A stretch of DNA of 53,117 nucleotides from positions 1-53,117 of IMG/VR virus record IMGVR_UViG_3300018074_000005. One strand, given 5' to 3'. The DNA is from a virus. Its lineage: Duplodnaviria > Caudoviricetes. The notes beneath the pieces were generated by a model. It ran no database searches, was not told the origin of the DNA, and was given only the letters and a program-made list of their open reading frames with translations. Positions within the stretch are counted from its first letter, which is position 1. Each line of letters begins with the position of its first letter. Shown here in pieces: positions 1 through 53,117 of the stretch. A program made the position numbers and the translations under genes.

Positions 1-718
1 CGCCGGCCACACCATGTGCGTGCGTGGCGACGGTTACACCACCATTCAAAACGCCTTCGGCTCAACGGACTCGATTCGCACGCTGAGCGACGCCGATGAA
101 TTGCTCGGCAACCCCGCCGCCAGCCAAACCGGCAACGAAGTTCGCTGCTTCCGCTATACAGGCGAAAGTCACATCTGGATCGAAGTCGGCGAGAAGAATC
201 CCGCGATCTGGGCGATCCCGTACAGTGCGTCGATGACGCCGGACCTGTCCAAGGGGACAATCCAGACCATCAATGTTACCAACAACAGCGCTTTCACGAT
301 TCACGCACCTGTGTCTACTACCCGGCCTTCGCAGGGCGGCGTCGAATGGCAGATCGTCATCACCAACTCATCGGGCGGAGTCGCCGGCGCCGTTACCTTC
401 GATGCGGGTGCAGGTAATTATGTAGTTCCCAAGGGCATCACTGCCCCAGCCAACGCTGAGACGGCAGTCTGGGCCTTCCTCTACGACGGAGTGCACGAAG
501 CCAACTTGCATCGGATGCTGTGGCCCAATGCGGTCAGCGTGCTCAAGGCAGCCAAGTACGCGGTCGGGGCCTTGCCTGCGTGCGCCGCCCCTGCCGATGA
601 AGGCTGGGCGATCATCACCGATCACAACGCAGGCTGCGCCTATGGAGCGGCACCCGCTGCCGGTGCTGCAAACGTCTGTCCGGTGTTCTGTAACGGCGCC
701 GCTTGGACGATTCACTAA
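1..718 (+). CDS. C-terminal part of tailspike/tail fibre protein (5'-partial; probably continues the ORF starting at 50981)
   Basis: Frame is open from base 2 (AGHT-MCVRGDGYTTIQN). Gly/Thr/Ala-rich beta-type sequence ending in a Cys-containing CPVFCNGAAW terminus. Style matches the ORF running off the right end of the window. Confidence 0.65.
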   Translation, partial: AGHTMCVRGDGYTTIQNAFGSTDSIRTLSDADELLGNPAASQTGNEVRCFRYTGESHIWIEVGEKNPAIWAIPYSASMTPDLSKGTIQTINVTNNSAFTIHAPVSTTRPSQGGVEWQIVITNSSGGVAGAVTFDAGAGNYVVPKGITAPANAETAVWAFLYDGVHEANLHRMLWPNAVSVLKAAKYAVGALPACAAPADEGWAIITDHNAGCAYGAAPAAGAANVCPVFCNGAAWTIH

Positions 719-4425: not shown

Positions 4426-4535
4426 GTGAATAGAGATAAGCGGCTGGGCAGGGCGAGCCTTCGGGCCTTACCCCTTGGGTACATGGCGGGTCAGCGCGTA
4501 AAGGGACCTTAAATCGGCTCTAATGCGAAATCGGG

Positions 4536-7724: not shown

Positions 7725-8030
7725 CCGCAAGACGACGAGCGCCTGGACTCAGCGGATTTGGAACCCAACCGTTGCGCAACAAGGCTTCTTGCGAGCAATC
7801 GGACGCAATCCCAATCCGCAAGCCGGAACTGGCGCTGGGGGTATGGTCGAGCGATTGCCTTCATTTCTCGCTTCGGAGAGCTTAAAACCCTTTATTTCTG
7901 AGGATTTACGACGGTCGAGCACTCCAATAATTTTTAAGCCACCCAAAAGCGGGGTGATGCTCTGATTCTGTGTTGCTAACCAAACAGACTGCCTTGCTTC
8001 ACGGGCAGGGAATAGAAGACGCCAACGATG

Positions 8031-13470: not shown

Positions 13471-14160
13471 TCATGCCGCTAGCATCCGCTCGATCAGTTC
13501 CAGTGCGGATTGCTGGAGGAGCTTAACTGTCGGTTGTAGTCTCTTCTGTGCTGCGGCGGCCCCTGCGGCGGCCCATGCGACGGCCCATGCGGCGTCCCCT
13601 GCGGCCCCTGCGGCGGCCCCTGCGGCGTCCCATGCGGCGTCCCGTGCGGCGTCCCCTGCGGCGTCCCATGCGGCGTCCCGTGCGGCGTCCCCTGCGGCCC
13701 CTGCGGCGGCCCCTGCGGCATCCCGCGCGGCGTTGATGGCGCGCCCAGTGTGGTGTGGGATTGATGACGCCACCATAAGTTCCGGTAAGCGAGTTAACGC
13801 ATCAGCGTGCGAATCGAGTCCCACCAGTCGCAGCCAAGCTGGCGCATACGTGCGGATCAACCAGTCCAGCGCAAGCATCCTCCGTCGTTCCTCCTGACCC
13901 CGTGAACTCGCGCGAGACCCCACCAGCTTGAGCACCAGCGGTAGGAGCAGGCGCGTTCGATCGGCGTCCGGCAGCGCGTCATTCCAGGCGCGCAGAAAGG
14001 CGCTGATCACTGGGCACGCGCATACGGGCTGAGCCGACCATCGCTCATGTGCGACGTAGGCGACCGCTTCCATGACGCACATGTGCGAGTCGGGCTTGTG
14101 GGCGCCACGGTAAAGCGCCGTGATAGTCTTGAACCGCTCAAGATCAACTGTTGCGTTCAT
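13471..14160 (-). CDS. Phage protein with Ala-rich AA(R/G/W)D tetrapeptide repeats
   Basis: MCVMEAVAYVA...P.CACPVISAFLRAWNDALPD N-terminal domain; RBS GGAG. Confidence 0.8.
   Translation of the reverse strand: MNATVDLERFKTITALYRGAHKPDSHMCVMEAVAYVAHERWSAQPVCACPVISAFLRAWNDALPDADRTRLLLPLVLKLVGSRASSRGQEERRRMLALDWLIRTYAPAWLRLVGLDSHADALTRLPELMVASSIPHHTGRAINAARDAAGAAAGAAGDAARDAAWDAAGDAARDAAWDAAGAAAGAAGDAAWAVAWAAAGAAAAQKRLQPTVKLLQQSALELIERMLAA
13551..13730. repeat. 12-bp tandem repeat array (GCGGCGTCCCNT-like)
   Basis: About 15 degenerate in-frame units. Confidence 0.85.
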
Positions 14161-15074: not shown

Positions 15075-15117
15075 CAACAATACGCTCACCGTATAGCTTT
15101 TGTCAAGGGCTTGAATC
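15075..15117 (-). promoter_or_regulatory. Sigma70-type early promoter, copy 2 of the 43-bp inverted repeat
   Basis: Exact reverse complement of 940..982; points into the minus-strand operon. Confidence 0.8.
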
Positions 15118-31800: not shown

Positions 31801-32367
31801 ATGCCGGCAGTAGGACTAGAAGGTATGGGACCGTCGGATATTCCCGGGATGATGCCGCAGCCCAATCCGATGGCTTCTTCGGGCGCGGGGTGGGGCGCTG
31901 GCGGTGGTGCTGGCGGCAGTTTCAATCTGGGCAACTTCATGCAGCAGATTATGCCGCTGCTGATGCAGGCGGCACAGAGCAGCCCGCAGGTTGCCCAACT
32001 GTTGCAGCAGCTGGGTATCCAGATGCCGCAGAATCCCGCAAGGAGTAATCCCCCGTGGTTCGACGACATAGTGCCGCCCTTTCCGCAGCAGCCGTTTCAG
32101 AAAAGGAGTGCTCCCCCGTTCGAGGACAGGCCGGTGCCGCCCTTTCCGCAGCAGCCGTTTCAGAAAAGGAGTGCTCCCCCGTGGTTCGACAGGGCGACGA
32201 CCAACTTTCCGCAGCCAAACCCAGTTGCACAGCCGATCGGCCCTGCAATGAGGGACCCCTTCGGTCCGGTAAGTTTCAGGGGGCCACAGCGCGATCCGGC
32301 CATGAACGATCCCTACGCGGATTTTCTTAAGAATCCCCCTGCCATCAGCGGCTCGATGACTCCATGA
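31801..32367 (+). CDS. Pro/Gln/Met-rich protein with an internal 21-aa repeat
   Basis: RBS AGGAG; VPPFPQQPFQKRSAPP occurs twice. Confidence 0.6.
   Translation: MPAVGLEGMGPSDIPGMMPQPNPMASSGAGWGAGGGAGGSFNLGNFMQQIMPLLMQAAQSSPQVAQLLQQLGIQMPQNPARSNPPWFDDIVPPFPQQPFQKRSAPPFEDRPVPPFPQQPFQKRSAPPWFDRATTNFPQPNPVAQPIGPAMRDPFGPVSFRGPQRDPAMNDPYADFLKNPPAISGSMTP
32071..32182 (+). repeat. 49-bp direct repeat, period 63 bp
   Basis: Identical copies at 32071 and 32134, in frame. Confidence 0.9.
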
Positions 32368-43916: not shown

Positions 43917-45653
43917 ATGCTTGAGCCTTTCGTGCAAAGCGACTTTAGTCTTGGGCTCGTCGCGGTCGTAGGTCGCTACCAGCAACCGCCCAACTCAGTT
44001 TTTCGTCTCTCAAACTTCTTCTACCGCACGCCCGGCGACCTTGAAGTGGTCGATGGCAGCCTAATCGTTACTACCCGCGTCGCACCCGGCCCGACCAACT
44101 CCATCGTCATAATCGCGCCGTTTACGCCGGTCGGCTCAGCTGCGAAGATTCTGGCGCTCCAGTTCAGCGGTGCACAGTACGACCTGATCGACGTAAGCGG
44201 GGCGACTTACAACGCCTCGCTGGCTACGCTGGCGAGCACCTACGCAACGCCTGACCTCGTAATGTTCGCCGGCAAACTCGTGGTCGTGGCGGGTCTGTCA
44301 GTGGTGCCGCAGCTTTGGAACGGGGCGGCGCTGACGCCGATTACCAATAGCTGGACTGCGGCCGGCTACATCCCGCTGTGGCAAGCGGCCCTGCCTGTGC
44401 AGGTCGGCGATGTGATTCAGCCCACGCCTACCAATGGCTTCTTTTACATCTGCGAGCAGGCCGGACTGACGGGCGCTGCGCTACCGGCCTTTCCGGTGGT
44501 AGCAGGAACCGTGGTAGACAACAATGTGATCTGGCGCTTCACCGGCCCCACGACACCAGTGACAGTGCCCAAAGCCGCACACGCCTTCAACCATCTCGAT
44601 TCACTATGGTTATGGGGCACGGATGCCGCAGAGGGGCCGTTTGACGGCCCGAGCTCACTGCGTATGAGCGACACCGGCAACCCCAATTCGTACAACCCCA
44701 TCAACCAGGACTTCATCGGCGTCGGCGATGGGCAGACCGCACAAGGCGGTGCCAGCATGTCGATGGGCGAGTTGGGAATCGCCAGTACACCGACGTTAGT
44801 CCTGTTCAAGGATCGCTCGACCTATGAGATCGTGGGGTCTTTCCCGGTCGCGACTGCGAGCAAGGCCAAGACTGATAAGGGCTGCATCGCGGCGCGCTCG
44901 ATTCAGTTCATCGCCGAGCTCGGCGGCGTCATCCGACTGACGCATCAAGGCTTCGCGCTCTATACGGGGCCGGGCCAGACCGGCGACCAACTCCTAAGTG
45001 AGGTCATCCAGGACTACATTTTCCCCAACAGCTCAGACGTGGCCGCGATCGACTTCACCAACGCCAGTGTGGCGAAGTCAGGCCAGATGGACAACCCGCT
45101 GATGTACCTCTGCGCCGTGCCGATTATCGGGGGCAGCGGCAACCTGACGCGCGTGTTTATCTATTCCATCTTACAGAAGGTGTGGGCCATCGCGGATCTG
45201 CCCTTCAACATCACGGCGCTCAATTTCGTACAGATCCCGAATGTAGCGGCAAAGTTGCTGCTCGGGGACAAGACCGGCGGCAACGTGCGGCGGTGGATGG
45301 CTAACGATAGCGACTTTGATGGCGCGGCGATCTCATGGTCCGTTAGGGGACCGCTGATGCGGGACAAGCGGGGAGCGCCGGTCTACTTCCGGCGGGTGAC
45401 AGTGCAGACCTCCGGCGGTACGCCCACAATCACGAGCGCAACGCTCGACTACGACGACATCGCAACCGCACGTCCCAAAACGCAGGCCGTCACGACAGTG
45501 GCGCCCTATCCGGTGAGTCCGCCGGTCAGTCTATCCCTGGGCATCACGACGCGTGGCGCGCAGATCACCGTCAACGGCAAGGGCAAGACTAAACTTGAGG
45601 CGCTTGAGTGGCATGGTGTGCGCAAGCGGCCGCGTCAGATTGCCGGTGTCTAA
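43917..45653 (+). CDS. Tail nozzle/tubular protein B-like (beta-propeller)
   Basis: About 580 aa; LRMSDTGNPNSY, LVLFKDRSTY, KGCIAARSI motifs typical of podovirus stabilisation proteins. Confidence 0.75.
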   Translation: MLEPFVQSDFSLGLVAVVGRYQQPPNSVFRLSNFFYRTPGDLEVVDGSLIVTTRVAPGPTNSIVIIAPFTPVGSAAKILALQFSGAQYDLIDVSGATYNASLATLASTYATPDLVMFAGKLVVVAGLSVVPQLWNGAALTPITNSWTAAGYIPLWQAALPVQVGDVIQPTPTNGFFYICEQAGLTGAALPAFPVVAGTVVDNNVIWRFTGPTTPVTVPKAAHAFNHLDSLWLWGTDAAEGPFDGPSSLRMSDTGNPNSYNPINQDFIGVGDGQTAQGGASMSMGELGIASTPTLVLFKDRSTYEIVGSFPVATASKAKTDKGCIAARSIQFIAELGGVIRLTHQGFALYTGPGQTGDQLLSEVIQDYIFPNSSDVAAIDFTNASVAKSGQMDNPLMYLCAVPIIGGSGNLTRVFIYSILQKVWAIADLPFNITALNFVQIPNVAAKLLLGDKTGGNVRRWMANDSDFDGAAISWSVRGPLMRDKRGAPVYFRRVTVQTSGGTPTITSATLDYDDIATARPKTQAVTTVAPYPVSPPVSLSLGITTRGAQITVNGKGKTKLEALEWHGVRKRPRQIAGV

Positions 45654-45656
45654 GCG

Positions 45657-46271
45657 ATGCCTCTCCAGCGTGGCGGCAGCTCGACTCTCCCGCCCGATGT
45701 TCAACAGCAGCTCCGTGCATTTCTCGGCACACTAGCCTTCCGCGATAAGGTCGCCTTCGGCGACATCGTAGCCCGCTCGATCACGGCGAGCCACATTCGG
45801 GCCGCGACCATCACAGCCGACCTGATCGTTGCCAACGCAATCTCGCTGGGCGTGACGCTTGATTACGCGCCGGACGTGAATATCACGCCCTATGGGGCTT
45901 GGGTGGACATCGCGACGGGCATCACGCTGTCGATCGCAAAGACGACCGACTTCGTGGTGTTCGCAAACACGATCACGGCGGATGTTGCAAACCTCCAACC
46001 CGGCGGTGACGAGATCGACTTTCGAGTCCGCGAGACGGTGGGTGCGACCACGGTAATCGAGACGCACAACATCGCAACGGCGCAAGCTGGACTCGCTTCA
46101 ACCTACAGCGTCGGCGGCGTGCCGTTCATCTATCTGCTATCCGGTTTCGCGGTGGGGAATATCACGTTGCTGCCGCAGATTCAGCTTATCAACGGATCGG
46201 GATCGGGAACGTTGGCGATGACTACGACGGACACGAAGATTTGGGCATTTTGCCTACGCCAAACAGGCTAG
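45657..46271 (+). CDS. Tail-associated protein
   Basis: ARSITASHIRAATITADLI repeats typical of tail tips. Confidence 0.65.
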   Translation: MPLQRGGSSTLPPDVQQQLRAFLGTLAFRDKVAFGDIVARSITASHIRAATITADLIVANAISLGVTLDYAPDVNITPYGAWVDIATGITLSIAKTTDFVVFANTITADVANLQPGGDEIDFRVRETVGATTVIETHNIATAQAGLASTYSVGGVPFIYLLSGFAVGNITLLPQIQLINGSGSGTLAMTTTDTKIWAFCLRQTG

Positions 46272-46310
46272 CCTTGATTATATACGGAATCTGCGGTAAG
46301 TAATCGCGCC

Positions 46311-46823
46311 ATGGCAATTCTGGGCCTCGACGGTACGCCGATAAAGTATCCGGCTTTTCGCTGCGCGATCGATGTGCAGGGCGAAATTGCGGCTATTTTC
46401 ATGTCCACCGACGCGAACATCCCTGATCAGCGCGCGCCGACCGGATGCTTTTGGGTCGATATCGCGGTTGAGGACTTTCATCGTATCAAGGCGGATCCCC
46501 ATTCCTTCACGCTCGAAGCAGGCGCGCGCGTCGCGACCGTCAAGGCGAAGCAGACGTTGACGCTGAGCGTGAATCGCCACCGCTTCAAGGCGGATGGCGT
46601 TGACGCCGCCAAGCTGACTTGGGACACGACCGAGCCGGTGACCATTTGGGCCAACAACGCCTCTTTGGACGGCGCCTACACTTCGCCCGACACCTACCAG
46701 CCACCCAAAGACGAAAAGACCGGCCTGCCGCGTGTGGGGCCGGTTGTGCTGTGGATTCGGGATGTGCGGCATGTCTCGAATCGGGTAACGGTGGTGTTCG
46801 TAGACCCTGCGGAGGCCGTATGA
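46311..46823 (+). CDS. Hypothetical protein
   Basis: In operon; stop overlaps the next ATG. Confidence 0.6.
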   Translation: MAILGLDGTPIKYPAFRCAIDVQGEIAAIFMSTDANIPDQRAPTGCFWVDIAVEDFHRIKADPHSFTLEAGARVATVKAKQTLTLSVNRHRFKADGVDAAKLTWDTTEPVTIWANNASLDGAYTSPDTYQPPKDEKTGLPRVGPVVLWIRDVRHVSNRVTVVFVDPAEAV

Positions 46824-46932
46824 CCTGTCCAGACTGCGATGGCAGTGGCTCGCTGACGGGAAGGAAATCTTCGCTGGGTTGGTGGTCGGCATGACCTGTC
46901 CAGACTGCGATGGCAGTGGCTCACTGACGGGA
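46820..46932 (+). repeat. 42-bp direct repeat pair flanking a 29-bp insert that is antisense to the tailspike gene
   Basis: Copies at 46820..46861 and 46891..46932 (1 mismatch). 46860..46892 is the exact reverse complement of 52994..53026. Confidence 0.92.
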
Positions 46933-47148
46933 CTTGGATGCGGCCCTCGCGCATCGCGAGTGGTGACGCTGGCTTGCTTTACTTGCTACGGCAGCGGGGA
47001 GATTGACGAGGCTAAAGCCAAGGCGATTGAAGCCGGTGAACAGATGCGCAAGGAACGTGTAGCGCGCGGCTTGAGCCTGCGAGCTGAGGCGCGACGGCTG
47101 GGCATTAAGCCGGGCGTGCTGGCGGATCGTGAACAGGGCCGCAACTGA
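46891..47148 (+). CDS. DnaJ-type Zn finger plus XRE-like HTH protein
   Basis: CPDCDGSG...CFTCYGSG; RVARGLSLRAEARRLGI....LADREQG. Confidence 0.75.
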   Translation: MTCPDCDGSGSLTGLGCGPRASRVVTLACFTCYGSGEIDEAKAKAIEAGEQMRKERVARGLSLRAEARRLGIKPGVLADREQGRN

Positions 47149-47615
47149 TGCCCATTGACTCGACCAAGACTGGGCGGACCTTCCCCGCCACACCCGAGAG
47201 CGTACCGCCGTGGGCGCCGCTGATGGAGGCTGTGCGTGATCTCAAAAAAACACTTGAACAATTCGGCGTCAAAGTTGTAATCGCCTTGGGCGAGCATCAG
47301 CGTGAATTGTCCCGCGCACGCGCTGCCATCGACAACAGTGCTGGGGCCACTACCCGCGCCGCCAAGGCGATCGTGCAGGCGACCGCAATCCATTGTCGGA
47401 AGATCGAGGAACATGGGCGCAAACTTGAGCGGTTCAATATCGGAAGTGAAGCGCGTGTACGGAAGCTGGATTCAGCACGTGTTCAGCCACGTCAGACAGC
47501 TCTCGCAGCCCCAAGACCAGCGCCTGCGCGAAGCCGTCCATTGGCACCTTTACACGATGGACGACAGCAAGGGGGTGCGCCCCGCCCTAGTCGGCGCGTG
47601 CTACGTGGCAGATGA
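47148..47615 (+). CDS. Hypothetical coiled-coil protein (overlaps the next gene by about 200 nt)
   Basis: TGATG coupling; helical first 100 aa. Confidence 0.5.
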   Translation: MPIDSTKTGRTFPATPESVPPWAPLMEAVRDLKKTLEQFGVKVVIALGEHQRELSRARAAIDNSAGATTRAAKAIVQATAIHCRKIEEHGRKLERFNIGSEARVRKLDSARVQPRQTALAAPRPAPARSRPLAPLHDGRQQGGAPRPSRRVLRGR

Positions 47616-48330
47616 GCATTTGCTATCGAATCTCCACCGCGACCTTGACGCGTTGCGTGCGGCTGCGGCTGTCGAGCTGATACATCGCTCGACTCTCGCG
47701 GTCGATGACTTAATTGATGATTCGCCCAAGCGCGGCGCACGCGAGGCCCTGCATGTCCGCTACTCGCCGGTGATGGCGGGTGCTGTGGCGATGTGGCTCA
47801 ACTGCATGGCGCAAAAACTGCTCGATGACAATGCCCGCGCGCGCCAAGACCTGCGGATACTGGCTAACCGGCTGGCGCTGGGGGAAGTACTGCAGGAGCG
47901 CTGGAGCAAACAAGAGGGCAAGACGCCGCCGGCGACTTGGCAGGAGATCGCGGATTTGGATACCGGCGCGCTGTTCGATTTTACGCTGGCGATGGGCCGT
48001 AAGCCTAGTCCCGCGTTCGCCTATCCGTTGGCGCGACTGCGGCATGGACTCGATGATATCGAAGATCTGCTGGACCCCGAAGGCGATCAGCGCGACGTGG
48101 CGCAGGGGACACCGACACTCCCGACGGTGTTCACCGAAGCTAAGGAGCACGCGGGACTGGTTGCGGCGATTCCGCGGGCGCTGGCGTATCTTGAAACTGA
48201 GCTGGAACGTGTTAAGGTGTACGTCAAGCGCAAGGGAATGCTGAGGCCATTTGTCGATGACTTCGAGCGACAACTGCGAGGATACCAGAAAGTCGGCGTC
48301 AGCGCCGACCGGGACCGCAGCCGACCTTGA
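47413..48330 (+). CDS. Polyprenyl synthetase (trans-isoprenyl diphosphate synthase) family protein
   Basis: KGVRPALV, AAAVELIH.STLAVDDLIDDSPKRG (first DDxxD), LDDIED (second DDxxD), DVAQGTPTLP; RBS GAGGA. Confidence 0.85.
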   Translation: MGANLSGSISEVKRVYGSWIQHVFSHVRQLSQPQDQRLREAVHWHLYTMDDSKGVRPALVGACYVADEHLLSNLHRDLDALRAAAAVELIHRSTLAVDDLIDDSPKRGAREALHVRYSPVMAGAVAMWLNCMAQKLLDDNARARQDLRILANRLALGEVLQERWSKQEGKTPPATWQEIADLDTGALFDFTLAMGRKPSPAFAYPLARLRHGLDDIEDLLDPEGDQRDVAQGTPTLPTVFTEAKEHAGLVAAIPRALAYLETELERVKVYVKRKGMLRPFVDDFERQLRGYQKVGVSADRDRSRP

Positions 48331-48425
48331 AGACGTGCTACGCGCGTTGGGGTACATCGACCCGATAGTGCCGCCATTTGATTACGCGAAGACTCGGCTC
48401 ATTGAGCCGCGCGGAGGAGAGGCGA

Positions 48426-48677
48426 ATGAAAATTATCCTGCATCACGATGATGGCCGACGATACGCTATAGAGCAGTCCGCGGTCAGTCTGGTCGAGGAA
48501 ACCGGGGATAAGGGTTGCGACGTCTACGTGACGGGCGATCCCACTGCCGCACGGGTTCGCGAGAGTTTCGAGGAAGTCTGCGAGCTGGCATGGCCGGCCG
48601 AACCGGCAACCCTGGGGGAGCGCTTAGCCGCCGCCCGAGAAGTCGCACAGGCACCGCCGCCGCCCTTGACAAGCTAG
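48426..48677 (+). CDS. Small hypothetical protein (FlbD-like)
   Basis: RBS GGAGG; AVSLVEE...RVRESFEEV pattern. Confidence 0.55.
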   Translation: MKIILHHDDGRRYAIEQSAVSLVEETGDKGCDVYVTGDPTAARVRESFEEVCELAWPAEPATLGERLAAAREVAQAPPPPLTS

Positions 48678-48694
48678 CGGCGCGGGCGTAGATT
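48666..48694 (+). promoter_or_regulatory. Sigma70 promoter
   Basis: TTGACA-17nt-TAGATT. Confidence 0.65.
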
Positions 48695-48725
48695 TCAAGG
48701 CGTCCTCCACACCCATCCTCCCAAG

Positions 48726-48760
48726 GGCTGCCCCGGCCGTCACATCCGGCTGGGGCAGCC
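48726..48760. other. 14-bp GC-rich hairpin without a U-tract
   Basis: GGCTGCCCCGGCCG-TCACATC-CGGCTGGGGCAGCC. Confidence 0.6.
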
Positions 48761-48892
48761 GAGTGTTCCGTCTAACTTGGCCAGTTACGGTCAGTACGTC
48801 TAGCTACTTCCTACGCATAGATTGAGGCTCCGCTGGAGCCGGTGCTACGGTCGCGCCAAGGGATTGTTCTCTCTTACGCGGGAGGATCGTGT

Positions 48893-49258
48893 ATGCACGC
48901 ACGGAATCTGGCTGTGCTCGCGCTGCTATCGGCACTGGCACTGGTAAGTACGCAGGCTTGGGCGGCCGGCGGCGTCAGCGCCGGAACCTCGGTGGGGTCG
49001 GTCACGGCTGTAACGCTGCTCAGCGCCAATGCCGGTCGTCACGGGCTGATGTGTCAGAACAACGGCGCTAATCAGGTCAGTGCCGCCTTCGGCACCACAG
49101 CGACGGCTACCAACGGCTTTTTGCTCAATTCCGCAGGCGGACTGCTCAAGCTGCCCGATGCTGAAACGCCGGGCGTGATTGGCAATGCGATGCCGCTGAC
49201 GGCGCTTTCGGCGCTCTCGGTCTCCGGCACCAATGCCGTTGTGTGCTTGGAGTGGTAG
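48893..49258 (+). CDS. Small beta protein with signal peptide (paralog family A)
   Basis: MHARNLAVLALLSALALVSTQAWA-AGGVSAG...QNNGAN...NGF. Confidence 0.75.
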   Translation: MHARNLAVLALLSALALVSTQAWAAGGVSAGTSVGSVTAVTLLSANAGRHGLMCQNNGANQVSAAFGTTATATNGFLLNSAGGLLKLPDAETPGVIGNAMPLTALSALSVSGTNAVVCLEW

Positions 49259-49260
49259 CC

Positions 49261-50289
49261 ATGAAACGCCTACGCTTACTATTCATCGCCCTTGTTCTCG
49301 TTGCCATTCCTCTGTTGGTCGGTCTGGCCTACCCGCCGGCATTCGCATTCCTCAACGGTGGAAACCCGATCAGCCAAAGCGTTGTTCCGCTCAACACCGA
49401 TACCGGCGTGCCGACCAAAGTGGGGCATGTTTGGTATGTGGACCAGATTAACGGGAACGATACGAACAGCGGCTTTAGCCAGAGCGCCCCGTTCGCGACG
49501 ATTGGCAAGGGTCTGACCTCAGCGACCAATGGCGCGGGCGACATCATCATCGTCTACCCGGGCACCTATGCTGAGAATCTGAGCGTCACCAAGGATTACA
49601 TCACGATGATCGGGGCGATTTTGGGCGGGTACGCACGCCCCGATGTGGTACCGGCTGCGGGGATCGCGCTCACCGTCTCGACAGGAAGGGGATTCACCGC
49701 ACGGCATATGCGCTTTGCGTCGGTGGATAACTCCGACACGGTGCTCCAGAACACCAGTGGATTTCGCTATGAAGACGACGTGTTCGACGGCAACGCGCTT
49801 CAAGTGACCAAAGGAAATTTGCGCATCGTCGGCGGACCCGGCGGGACGGCTTCTGAGGGTAAGGTACTTAACTCGTACATCCGTGGTGGCGGAGCAGCGG
49901 GCATTCTCTTTCAGCATCGACTCGCCATAGATGGCGGCGAGGGCAGCACTGATAACGAGATCGCTCATTGTCGCTTCGTCGATAACGTGGCGAGCGATCT
50001 AAAGAGCGTCGTGAACACCAACGGCGGCGGCGCAGGTATCTACATAAACCTGAGCGTTCACGATAACCAGTTCATGACCAGCGGTGCCTCCTACAAGTAC
50101 ATTAACTTCGCAGCCGGCGCGGCGGGTGACTTGGCAGCCAACTCCTGCCTGATCGCAAATAATTACTTCGCTGACGAAGCGCTGACCGGCGGGACCGGCA
50201 ATCAGATCGATCTGGGCGCACAGCCCAAGGCGCACTTTGCGGGCAACTTCGACGACATCGCCGTCGTCAACGGGACGACCTTCAACTAG
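49261..50289 (+). CDS. Beta-helix (pectin-lyase-like) protein with signal peptide
   Basis: Leader ending AFA; VWYVD..NGNDTNSG....PFATI...GDIIIVYPGTYAE. Confidence 0.8.
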   Translation: MKRLRLLFIALVLVAIPLLVGLAYPPAFAFLNGGNPISQSVVPLNTDTGVPTKVGHVWYVDQINGNDTNSGFSQSAPFATIGKGLTSATNGAGDIIIVYPGTYAENLSVTKDYITMIGAILGGYARPDVVPAAGIALTVSTGRGFTARHMRFASVDNSDTVLQNTSGFRYEDDVFDGNALQVTKGNLRIVGGPGGTASEGKVLNSYIRGGGAAGILFQHRLAIDGGEGSTDNEIAHCRFVDNVASDLKSVVNTNGGGAGIYINLSVHDNQFMTSGASYKYINFAAGAAGDLAANSCLIANNYFADEALTGGTGNQIDLGAQPKAHFAGNFDDIAVVNGTTFN

Positions 50290-50304
50290 AACTAGGAGCG
50301 CGCC

Positions 50305-50589
50305 GTGCCCGATCCTGTACCGGCGACCCTAGCCCCGACACCACCGGCGATTGATACGGGTCGCAGCGTTGTGCGCGATGTTTTGGCGTTCTGCATCACG
50401 GCGGGCTTTTTCGGGTTCATCTTCATGATCGTCTACCTCAAGTGGGTGGACGATAAGATTTTCTCGATTCTGATGGCGCTGATTGCGATCGAGACCAACG
50501 TGCTTCAGTATTATTTCGGAAGTTCGATGGGTAGCGCCAGCAAGGATGCCTTGCTCGGACGCATGGCCAAAAACGGAGGGCAGTCATAA
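50305..50589 (+). CDS. Two-TM holin-like protein
   Basis: Two TM segments and a YYFGSSMGS.SKD motif. Confidence 0.7.
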   Translation: MPDPVPATLAPTPPAIDTGRSVVRDVLAFCITAGFFGFIFMIVYLKWVDDKIFSILMALIAIETNVLQYYFGSSMGSASKDALLGRMAKNGGQS

Positions 50590-50634
50590 TGACTTCCGTA
50601 CAGGCCCCCGCACCCGCAACTGCGAGTCCGTAAG

Positions 50635-50952
50635 ATGGCAGGCGGCGTCAGCGCCGGGTTCACGCTGAACACGGCGACCTCGACGGCGCTGTTGCCGGTC
50701 AACAACCGTCGCAAGTGGCTGTTCATCCAAAACAACGGCGCGAACGTTGTCATCATCGCATGCGGCACGAATAACGGCGCTTCCGCAGTCTCACCCGGCA
50801 ATGGCTTTCAGATCGCAGCCGGCGGTTCCTTGATTCTGCCGCCGGTAGTAGGGGCGCTGCCCGCCGGCGTTGGTCTGACGGGTGCCCCGACCACCGACAT
50901 CGCCGGGATTGCGATTGGGGGCGCCTCGGATGTGGTTGTGCTGGAAAACTGA
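50635..50952 (+). CDS. Small beta protein without signal peptide (paralog family A)
   Basis: MAGGVSAG...NNRRKWLFIQNNGAN...NGFQIAAGGSL. Confidence 0.7.
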   Translation: MAGGVSAGFTLNTATSTALLPVNNRRKWLFIQNNGANVVIIACGTNNGASAVSPGNGFQIAAGGSLILPPVVGALPAGVGLTGAPTTDIAGIAIGGASDVVVLEN

Positions 50953-50980
50953 GCTAAGCCACGCCGCGCGCCCACCCGCC

Positions 50981-53117
50981 ATGTACCCAAGGGGTAGAGC
51001 TGGAAAGCCCGCTCTGCGCAGCCGCTGCCTCAGCGCGGGGCATTATTTGGGTGTGCTCATGCTCCTACTGGCGTTGGGTGCTCAGGCTCGGGCGCAGCCA
51101 ATCAGCGGCCCAACCGCACCCGGCGGCGGTATCAGCGTGCCGGCGGGTACGTCTACCGGGCCGATTATCAACGTCAGCGTTAACAACGTCCTCAACCCCA
51201 AGGCGACGCCCTTCTATGCCAGCGGCTCCAATCAGACTGCGACTTGCAGCGGAACTATCGGGAGTACGGCACTCACCTGTCCCGCTGGGGTAGCCGACTT
51301 CATCGGCCACTACGGGATCACCGTTCCCAGCGGCGGTACGAGCAACACGCTGGCGACACCTGCCGCTCCCGCAGTCGTGAACACCAGCGTCATCACTGCG
51401 GAGGCGGGCAACATTGGCGCTTGCGGCGGCTGTTCGATCACGCCCGCCAATACGCCGACTACGGACTTTGGCGTTCAGTTCACTGCTACGGGCGGTAATT
51501 CGTCGCAGGGACAGCCGCTGACCGAACACGGCAGCGCCCCCGTCGCGCAGTGGCAGTACCACTTCACCGGCGGCGTCTACAACTTTTTCAGTTCCGACGC
51601 GAACAAGGCGGTGTCGCTGGCCTACGAATACACCGATGCAACGGGCGGGACTTCGCATACCTACAAATGCATCGCGCTGAAGCTGGACGGTTCATTCAGC
51701 GCCGCCTCGCCCGGGACAATCAACGCGACCGGCCCTGTAACCTTGAGCTGGCTCAAGCGCAACGACGTGACTTGCGGAGTGTCTGCCGGCGCAGATGCTT
51801 ATGGGTTTTACCGCGACAATGTATGGATCGGCTCGACAGGGACGACTCTCTTCCACGATAACGGAGCAATCAGCCAAAACCGGCCGTGGTGGATTCCATC
51901 CAGTCCGACTGGGGCAGGCGCCGCCCCGCTGGTGACTTCGGTTACTGCGGTTGGAACGACCTCATTGGCGCTGACCGCTGCGCTTGTCAACACCGTGAGC
52001 GCGGTTGCGGTGCGCCATAGCGATAGCGTTGCGATTCAGGCTGCGATTACCGCGTGCGTCGCGCTGGGCGCAGGCGGCTGTGCGGTCGAGTTTCCGCCGG
52101 GCACCTACCTCGCGAACATCATCAACAAGACTGGGGTAGCGTTGCGCGGCCCGCATATCCAGCGCGGTGCATCGGTAACCGGTGCTGCTGTTGTTCTACA
52201 AAGCGGCCTGCCGGGCGCAGTAATCGACAGCGACAACTCCGGCAACCCGCGCAGTTCAGTTGAGGGCTTGGCGCTGAACTGTCTCGGTGCGGGCGGTCTC
52301 GGTGATCGAGGTATTCTACTGCGGCGAGATAAGGGCACAGTGATCAAGAATGTCACTATTCTCGCCTGCGGCGATCAGGGAATCCAGACCCAGATCAACA
52401 CGGTCGCGAACACCATCTTCGATGTACAGGCTCCCGATAGTCTGCGCGATCACAACCGCATCGAGCATAACGGCGCCTTGGACGTAGACGGTAGCGATAA
52501 CTATATCGGTGGCCAGAGTGAATTTGGCGCTGCACTCCAATCTTATGAGAACTCACCGACCTCTTTGCGCCTATATGTCGATGGGATCGTGATTCGCGGC
52601 GGGACCACGCATATCGATGGCCTCGTGGTCGGCGAGCTGTCGGACGAGGGAGTTTACGCAGGCGAGACGGTAACCTCGGCGAGCTACCCGCTATTCATCG
52701 TGATTGATGCGCTGCGGGTTGACCATAATTTCGGGCATGGAATCGAGTTGGAGAAGGGCATCGGTCAGTTCCTCGGCTTATTGTCGCTCGACAACGGCAT
52801 CGGCTTGAATAATTATTTCGATGCAATTCACACCGATAACAATGCGATTGCACAATGGCAGGTAAGCGATTTCTCGAATGTCAGCAACACCGCCAACAGG
52901 GTTCGCTACGGCATCTGGGATGCAGGGTCAGGCTCGGAATATACGAATCCGCTGATAGGCCCGACGTCCTTCAGCACGGCGCGCTACTTCGCTATGCCGA
53001 CCACCAACCCAGCGAAGATTTCCTTCGCGGTGGGCACTGTTCTGCCGCTGACCGGCACGACGCCTGATGTCTCGGCGGGCGACGACTTCTTTTTCAACAA
53101 TGCCGCCACGCCGACCA
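50981..53117 (+). CDS. Tailspike with pectate-lyase-like beta-helix and signal-peptide-like leader (3'-partial; absent from the ORF track)
   Basis: Manual translation is open to the window end: YLGVLMLLLALGAQARA leader; DSVAIQAAI...VEFPPGTY motif; ends ...TPDVSAGDDFFFNNAATPT. Confidence 0.85.
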   Translation, partial: MYPRGRAGKPALRSRCLSAGHYLGVLMLLLALGAQARAQPISGPTAPGGGISVPAGTSTGPIINVSVNNVLNPKATPFYASGSNQTATCSGTIGSTALTCPAGVADFIGHYGITVPSGGTSNTLATPAAPAVVNTSVITAEAGNIGACGGCSITPANTPTTDFGVQFTATGGNSSQGQPLTEHGSAPVAQWQYHFTGGVYNFFSSDANKAVSLAYEYTDATGGTSHTYKCIALKLDGSFSAASPGTINATGPVTLSWLKRNDVTCGVSAGADAYGFYRDNVWIGSTGTTLFHDNGAISQNRPWWIPSSPTGAGAAPLVTSVTAVGTTSLALTAALVNTVSAVAVRHSDSVAIQAAITACVALGAGGCAVEFPPGTYLANIINKTGVALRGPHIQRGASVTGAAVVLQSGLPGAVIDSDNSGNPRSSVEGLALNCLGAGGLGDRGILLRRDKGTVIKNVTILACGDQGIQTQINTVANTIFDVQAPDSLRDHNRIEHNGALDVDGSDNYIGGQSEFGAALQSYENSPTSLRLYVDGIVIRGGTTHIDGLVVGELSDEGVYAGETVTSASYPLFIVIDALRVDHNFGHGIELEKGIGQFLGLLSLDNGIGLNNYFDAIHTDNNAIAQWQVSDFSNVSNTANRVRYGIWDAGSGSEYTNPLIGPTSFSTARYFAMPTTNPAKISFAVGTVLPLTGTTPDVSAGDDFFFNNAATPT

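Follow-up and report, generated by a model that had tools for sequence, protein, structure and literature searches.

A duplicated gene start with an inverted, tailspike-like insert in a phage genome is probably the scar of a two-step template switch

The DNA analysed here, in the following called the window, is the whole of the IMG/VR virus record IMGVR_UViG_3300018074_000005 (Caudoviricetes), 53,117 nt in length, in which genes for terminase, portal, major head protein, tail fibre, endolysin, DnaB helicase, YqaJ exonuclease and two DNA methylases are recognised. The element under study lies where the gene for a 170-aa protein meets the gene for a small, regulator-like protein with zinc-finger and helix-turn-helix (HTH) features. 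At this junction, the first 42 nt of the regulator gene are present twice, and the stretch between both copies is an inverted copy of a segment from the middle of a tailspike-like gene. The first copy opens a mini-ORF (open reading frame) in front of the regulator gene. The coordinates of the features and the sequencing depths are collected in Table 1.

The repeats are identical at 41 of 42 positions and have a spacing of 71 nt. The sole difference, G at 46852 and A at 46923, is synonymous (TCG and TCA, both Ser). The insert shares 2 nt with each repeat, its first GA and its last AT, which leaves a strict spacer of 29 nt (46862-46890), and the inverted match to the donor site reaches 36 nt at 97% identity (46857-46892 and 52994-53029). 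In a search allowing up to 3 mismatches, two sites only were found, namely the insert and the donor (0.00 expected, 100 shuffles), and across 30 versions of the window simulated with a first-order Markov model, exact direct or inverted repeats reached a maximal length of 15-21 nt. A preliminary description of this DNA had reported two 42-nt repeats with one synonymous mismatch, a hairpin and a 29-nt spacing, a perfect antisense copy of 33 nt overlapping each repeat by 2 nt, and a mini-ORF of 24 codons forming an ATGA overlap with the second ATG; all of this was recovered at the same positions. The repeat-insert-repeat unit is almost certainly a real feature.

Table 1. Features of the duplicated gene start, its neighbourhood and its donor, and depth of the corresponding Logan pieces in two sequencing runs
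Feature	Position	Strand	Depth	Description
Upstream gene	46311-46823	+		170 aa; TGA overlaps ATG of repeat copy 1 (ATGA)
Mini-ORF	46820-46894	+		24 codons, MTCPDCDGSGSLTGRKSSLGWWSA followed by stop; first CxxC knuckle only
Direct repeat, copy 1	46820-46861	+		42 nt; duplicated first 42 nt of the zinc-finger/HTH gene; opens the mini-ORF
Hairpin ACTGC-GATG-GCAGT	46833-46846, repeated at 46904-46917			one per repeat copy
Templated insert	46860-46892	+		perfect 33-nt reverse complement of 52994-53026
Direct repeat, copy 2	46891-46932	+		42 nt; authentic start of the zinc-finger/HTH gene
Regulator-like gene	46891-47148	+		85 aa; two CxxC pairs (DnaJ-type CxxCxGxG knuckle) and XRE-type HTH
Tailspike-like gene (P0001)	50980-53117, resumes at 1-718	+		959 aa; ATG at 50980
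Donor site	52994-53026	+		in frame AMPTTNPAKISF, middle of the 959-aa beta-helix, tailspike-like gene
Logan piece, left flank	45500-46849		11.5 / 12.7	
Logan piece, repeat core	46820-46851		26 / 28.8	shared 32-mer
Logan piece, repeat 1 into spacer	46822-46892		14.4 / 13.8	junction
Logan piece, spacer into repeat 2	46863-46920		11.4 / 16.1	junction
Logan pieces, right flank	from 46893 onwards		10.1; 14.2 and 9.59	

The presence of both junctions in the sampled population was assessed with two public DNA runs, which are freshwater sediment metagenomes and contain 0.99 of the sampled words of 45500-53117. Among the public runs matching this region, RNA runs numbered 0, versus these two DNA runs. 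The Logan contigs of both runs (k=31), an assembly independent of the original one, break exactly at the points predicted from the repeats. The junction pieces have the depth of the flanks and the repeat core has about twice this depth, which fits two copies per genome and essentially no unduplicated genomes. The number of repeats is two only, and the depths fit this number. No variant letters or joints are listed in the Logan contigs of the two runs. The preliminary description had named a junction held by one chimeric read as the case in which the duplication would fall; with a depth of 11-16 in the junction pieces, equal to the flanks, both one chimeric read and a joining error in the original assembly are excluded.

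The repeat corresponds to the conserved N-terminus, i.e. the first CxxC knuckle, of a zinc-finger/HTH protein family. The regulator protein gave weak matches to HTH_31, HTH_3 and DnaJ_CXXCXGXG, all under the Pfam cut-offs, and a match to phrog_8027 (E=1.2e-4), a PHROG of unknown function. Two homologues are available for comparison. P0003 (87 aa) is 51% identical by BLASTP (52% in the alignment) and starts with MTCPDCDGRGS, and the homologue in the viral contig L003, which has a different gene context, is 44% identical by tblastn (46% in the alignment) and starts with MICPKCKG. Because both start at the same residues with a single copy, copy 2 is taken as the authentic gene start. The TGA of the mini-ORF (46892-46894) overlaps this true ATG at 46891. 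The upstream gene has codon-position GC (guanine plus cytosine) values of 0.62/0.46/0.73, resembling those of the portal, capsid and terminase genes, and its protein belongs to no family in Pfam or PHROGs. The database call for the regulator gene is just 62 aa long (P0002, from VVTLACF) and omits the first zinc knuckle; the duplicated start probably misled the gene caller. A minus-strand ORF of 204 aa opening with the inserted ATG (46892 down to 46278) was rejected as spurious, its codon-position GC being of the antisense type.

The donor gene encodes P0001, for which Pfam, PHROGs and PDB sequence searches returned nothing. The structural neighbours of its Atlas model are right-handed beta-helix/pectate-lyase clusters (template modelling score, TM, by row 0.55-0.82, by query ≤0.44), and the Atlas feature hits are all below 0.9 and serve as leads only. 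The name tailspike, given to the gene in the preliminary description, is plausible by these neighbours of the model, which are its only support, and stays unproven. The C-terminal part of P0001 matched only itself among 7,998 candidates scored.

We consider the unit to be, most probably, a fixed and tolerated scar of a two-step microhomology-mediated template switch, which combines an inverted templated insertion with a tandem duplication. While the 5' end of the zinc-finger/HTH gene was copied, the nascent strand would have left its template after position 42 and re-annealed to the tailspike-like gene on its opposite strand, at a distance of 6.1 kb, by means of 2 nt (GA, or CGnGA if one mismatch is allowed). 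About 30 nt would have been copied from this opposite strand before the return via 2 nt (AT) to position 1 of the gene, 42 nt behind the exit point, with the consequence that 42 nt were copied twice. The expected product, a 71-nt unit, has the first 42 nt of the gene once more and, in addition, 29 nt of inverted filler. As a sub-variant, the same product would be left if a staggered break had captured a filler and been closed by end-joining. The anatomy of the sequence, its full depth in the runs, the nature of the repeat as a gene start, the junction microhomologies and the effects on the reading frame were shown by the analysis; we infer the direction from donor to recipient, the replicative mechanism and the lack of function.

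Several properties of the unit correspond to this mechanism. The insert copies sequence of the same genome (33/33) and is inverted with respect to its template, and the return to the original template is seen as the 42-nt tandem duplication of the recipient. Junction microhomology is exactly 2 nt on each side, GA on the left and AT on the right, and the left one extends to 4 of 5 nt; by chance, at least 2 nt on both sides would be met with a probability of about 0.0046. An inverted, templated insert flanked by microhomology is, according to the excerpted text of PMC8421209, the published signature of microhomology-mediated templated insertions. Since a flanking duplication is present at the recipient only, copying probably ran from the tailspike-like gene to the regulator gene; the donor copy is unduplicated and lies in frame within a long ORF. 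Judged by 1 difference in 42 nt between the repeats and 0 in 33 nt between insert and donor, the duplication event looks fairly recent. Promoter- or terminator-like sites were not found in 46200-47400, the local RNA fold is unremarkable (z=0.02), and an Rfam scan of 46300-47400 with E≤10 gave one meaningless match (E=6) and no CRISPR-DR family (CRISPR, short palindromic repeats that are clustered and regularly interspaced). A template-switch duplication was among the origins offered in the preliminary description, and this proposal fits the inverted self-copy, the 2-nt microhomology at both junctions and the flanking duplication of the recipient.

The reading frame offers an explanation for the tolerance. 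Translation of neighbouring genes can be coupled by ATGA stop/start overlaps, and upstream leader ORFs are known. As the period of 71 equals 3x24-1, the mini-ORF stops on a TGA overlapping the true ATG, and the ATGA overlap is recreated. A period of 70 would give a 61-aa out-of-frame read-through, and a period of 69 a 108-aa in-frame fusion. The coupling chain from the upstream gene via the mini-ORF to the regulator gene would thereby have been kept, hence the toleration. One frame in three is this benign, and the surviving product would therefore be what purifying selection allows. In comparison with coupled ATGA genes, the mini-ORF likewise ends with ATGA on the regulator start, as the upstream gene originally did. 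It differs from known coupled leader ORFs in that it would have arisen by accident when the first 14 codons of the gene itself were duplicated.

The mutational event is filed as one of an already known kind, i.e. a microhomology-mediated templated insertion, and its layout alone is CRISPR-like. With the insertions labelled ‘MMB-TI’, attributed to break-induced replication mediated by microhomology (MMBIR) or fork stalling and template switching (FoSTeS), the phage unit shares an inverted templated insert from the same genome with microhomology at the junctions. The template lies within about 100 bp there, as far as the excerpted source describes it, and 6.1 kb away in the phage. Further differences are the return 42 nt behind the exit point, by which a tandem duplication of the gene start is added, and the setting in the phage, where the event is fixed and translational coupling kept.

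Some points weigh against a template switch as the origin. The yeast-derived signature, in the excerpt of PMC8421209, has its templates within 100 bp, whereas the distance here is 6.1 kb, and a microhomology of 2 nt is short. For human events, remote templates are reported according to the title of a reference given there. Fixation in both runs together with kept coupling is equally expected of a selected element, and the 33-nt complement spans -31 to +2 of the regulator start, where an antisense repressor would bind. The two runs are probably the source samples of the window, and the independence of the depth data is accordingly one of assembler, not of sample. Moreover, no relative with the unduplicated, ancestral junction was found in the viral, metagenome and phage-record searches, so that polarity and age of the event are judged from the anatomy alone.

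These searches may leave out records of, or very near, the window's own genome. The 170-aa protein gave pattern stretches, 4 in viral and 125 in metagenome contigs, with 0 confirmed. The regulator protein gave 28 stretches in viral contigs with 1 confirmed, i.e. L003, and 2 of 10 candidates were matches in the protein search, including the 62-aa call of the window itself. The 32-mer of the repeat had 0 exact matches in viral and metagenome contigs, the 33-mer of the donor had 0 exact matches in other viral contigs, and blastn of 45657-48400 in the ‘distant’ setting against 50,697 phage records gave no match. The contig L003, the sole related one, shows a peculiarity of its own: at 7866-8004, a 17-nt direct repeat, comprising the end of the upstream gene and the ATGA overlap, flanks a 41-codon membrane-like ORF. 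This ORF is inserted directly upstream of the zinc-finger/HTH homologue, and the repeat flanking it represents a second junction duplication at the gene start of this family.

Among the alternatives to the template switch, a functional antisense element is the first to be considered, and we regard it as unlikely. The mRNA upstream of the regulator would pair over 33 nt with the tailspike-like mRNA and thus link the expression of both genes; pairing would occlude the ribosome-binding region and the start codon of the regulator or create a substrate for RNase III. Over 33 nt the two + strand genes are perfectly complementary, the predicted duplex has an energy of -91.2 kcal/mol (calculated for 73-nt windows around both sites, some weak flanking pairs included), the complement covers the stretch from -31 to +2 of the ATG at 46891, and both runs show the unit as fixed. 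That the complement covers the start codon, however, follows automatically from the origin of the duplication. The unit has neither a promoter nor a terminator of its own (46200-47400) nor any special local structure (z=0.02). Selection on complementarity is not indicated by 0/33 differences between insert and donor, compared to 1/42 between the repeats. This stretch is read as the mini-ORF, and its translation would unwind the duplex, and relatives in which conservation could be compared were not found.

An inversion of the 6.1-kb segment 46893-52993, by a site-specific invertase or by YqaJ-type recombination of the phage, would switch off or alter the tailspike-like gene. The segment is bracketed by perfect 33-bp inverted repeats, and the phage encodes a YqaJ-like exonuclease; systems of this type can use short homologies and might in principle act on 33 bp and cause rare inversion. 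We nevertheless hold this to be very unlikely. Recombinase, resolvase and integrase families are absent at E≤0.01 in 66 ORFs of the window and the full-length P0001. The 959-aa gene would be cut after the donor site, about two thirds through, with no alternative ORF left, and the minus-strand frame has codon-position GC of the antisense type. In the window and in the 53,190-nt contig from which P0001 derives, the orientation is the same and the gene intact; a 33-nt repeat is too long for the k=31 contigs to bridge, and they say nothing on the orientation of the segment. Invertible tail-fibre segments occur in the phages Mu (G/Gin) and P1 (C/Cin). As in these, short inverted repeats surround a multi-kb segment touching a gene of the receptor-binding type, but an invertase gene and alternative C-terminal exons were not found here. 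In contrast to Mu and P1, the N-terminal two thirds of the gene lie within the segment, and inversion would destroy the gene instead of switching it.

Alternatively, the unit might be the scar of an ectopic CRISPR adaptation event, in which Cas1-Cas2 of the host put a prespacer of 29-33 bp from the tailspike-like gene into a non-CRISPR site of the phage. Staggered integration at a site centred on the hairpin would duplicate 38-42 bp and form a one-spacer ‘neo-CRISPR’ unit, which would then have been packaged and fixed. The insert has the size of a spacer, the duplication is exact and of repeat-like length, either orientation would be possible, and the duplicated segment has a 5-bp palindrome close to its centre. 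Off-target integration seeding new arrays in E. coli has been described (Nivala et al. 2018, as cited in PMC7054753, 10.1101/148544), and, as far as the quoted passages describe such neo-CRISPR loci, the phage unit shares with them the spacer-sized insert with a flanking target duplication at a non-CRISPR site. It differs from the loci described there by microhomology at both junctions and by recipient and donor being the same phage genome. Integration of this kind needs no microhomology, yet 2 nt are found at both junctions (about 0.0046 by chance). Similarity to CRISPR-DR families is lacking, and no exact match to a 28-mer of the repeat or a 22-mer of the spacer was found when 185,579 species were scanned with one genome per species, such exact-match scans being a weak test of likeness to CRISPR repeats. 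The prior for insertion into a phage genome which is then packaged and fixed is low, and this origin appears highly improbable. If true, it would document, in nature, the off-target integration of a spacer into a virus and a way in which viral mini-arrays could originate.

An assembly or library artefact, i.e. a chimeric read or a mis-join, has to be considered in general, since the window was assembled from short metagenome reads at about 10-14x depth and the donor site lies only 91 nt from the contig end. In addition, 53024-53117 is uncovered by the Logan contigs in both runs, although such a gap proves nothing. With a second assembler recovering both junctions in two runs at flank-level depth, and the repeat core at 2x, an artefact is extremely unlikely. 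The contig end is accounted for by a gap within that one gene, about 25 nt long and closed in the 53,190-nt contig, and a chimera is expected to be rare and not fixed.

A functional, virus-borne mini-CRISPR array processed by Cas proteins of the host can practically be dismissed: despite the format of 42-nt repeats, a 29-nt spacer and a small hairpin per repeat, the repeat is a conserved coding N-terminus (MTCPDCDG..) with no CRISPR-DR match, no leader or promoter exists in 46200-47400, and a spacer matching the phage itself 33/33 would be suicidal. The sizes fall into the range of an array (at least 2 repeats of ~23-50 nt around a spacer of ~26-72 nt). Described viral mini-arrays have host-like repeats, are intergenic and target rival viruses, according to the excerpted text of PMC6858448. 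The phage unit shares the repeat-spacer-repeat layout and the CRISPR-like lengths with such mini-arrays and solitary repeat units, and it differs from those described in that excerpt by its coding repeats, its position, which is not intergenic, the lack of a leader and a match to self instead of a rival. Families of cas genes and reverse transcriptases were found in none of the 66 ORFs of the window and the full-length P0001. The CRISPR-like guide suggested in the preliminary description is not supported, given the coding repeat, the missing Rfam CRISPR-DR match, the lack of a cas gene in the ORFs scanned and the self-targeting spacer.

The record is classed as linear in IMG/VR, with a CheckV completeness estimate of about 65%. 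P0001 (959 aa; on the 53,190-nt contig) is 100% identical to the open-ended ORF 50882-53116 and bridges the window ends: ...NNAATPT is followed by nine residues (TVTNFLGGI) and AGHTMCV..., which leads into the open-ended ORF 2-718. Since one 959-aa gene spans both window ends, with about 25 nt (nine codons) absent between them, the record is probably close to complete. Despite the completeness estimate of 65%, the genome is probably circular or permuted and near-complete. Third-position GC is 0.53-0.63 in the tailspike-like gene, the regulator gene and ORF 47148-47615, and 0.73-0.75 in the portal, capsid and terminase genes. Several ORFs in this part of the window have signal-peptide-like hydrophobic N-termini (41411, 48842, 49243 and P0001). 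The region 46891-53116 may be a mosaic, acquired module.

Further repeats were noted in the window. The 12-mer GGCGTCAGCGCC (arms GGCG/CGCC around TCAG) is present in 14 copies, compared to 0.04 expected, 10 of them on the + and 4 on the - strand (1221, 2224, 6585, 13022, 16330, 17965, 22599, 25465, 37533, 38067, 44327, 48295, 48971 and 50644). The copies are spread over different genes, frames and two intergenic spots, often with C...G flanking, and the 12-mer is a DNA-level motif, possibly a protein-binding or uptake-like site. A perfect 43-nt inverted repeat (940-982 / 15075-15117) contains TTGACA-N18-TATTGT and is directed towards the + strand genes starting at 988 and the - strand genes located below 14160; it is probably one early promoter, present in two divergent copies. 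Another inverted repeat of 60 nt and 83% identity (4439-4498 / 50967-51026) joins the intergenic region before dnaB with the start of the tailspike-like gene. It has a perfect core of 23 nt with the near-palindrome TACCC-AAG-GGGTA and might represent either an operator common to both sites or a gene start copied in inverted form at an earlier time.

A perfect inverted match of 20 nt with sharp edges connects the C-terminal part of the tailspike-like gene with a minus-strand ORF (67-86 / 13802-13821). As a second tailspike snippet it was rejected, because 1 of 30 simulations gave at least 20 nt, the frames differ and no flanking duplication is present; the match is possibly due to chance. Within the minus-strand ORF 13471-14160, a tandem array with a period of 12 nt and about 16 copies (13540-13745; periods of 45 and 57 nt also occur) encodes repeats rich in Ala, Gly, Asp and Trp. 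In ORF 31801-32367, an in-frame tandem repeat of 63 nt is present in about 2.4 copies (32040-32196) and encodes proline-rich protein repeats of 21 residues. It was considered as a second duplicated gene start and rejected, as it is an in-frame protein repeat instead and no analogue of the unit.

Nothing fundamental is changed by this unit, and wider interest would arise only if the antisense link or the ectopic adaptation scar were true, neither of which is positively supported. If the template-switch reading is right, the unit can serve as a calibration case for mini-CRISPR screens of viral genomes, as a self-matching repeat-spacer-repeat is possible without CRISPR machinery. The phage would then provide a natural case of a two-step template switch that is unusually clean, with a remote inverted filler and duplication of a gene start, of which only the coupling-keeping frame outcome, one in three, survived.

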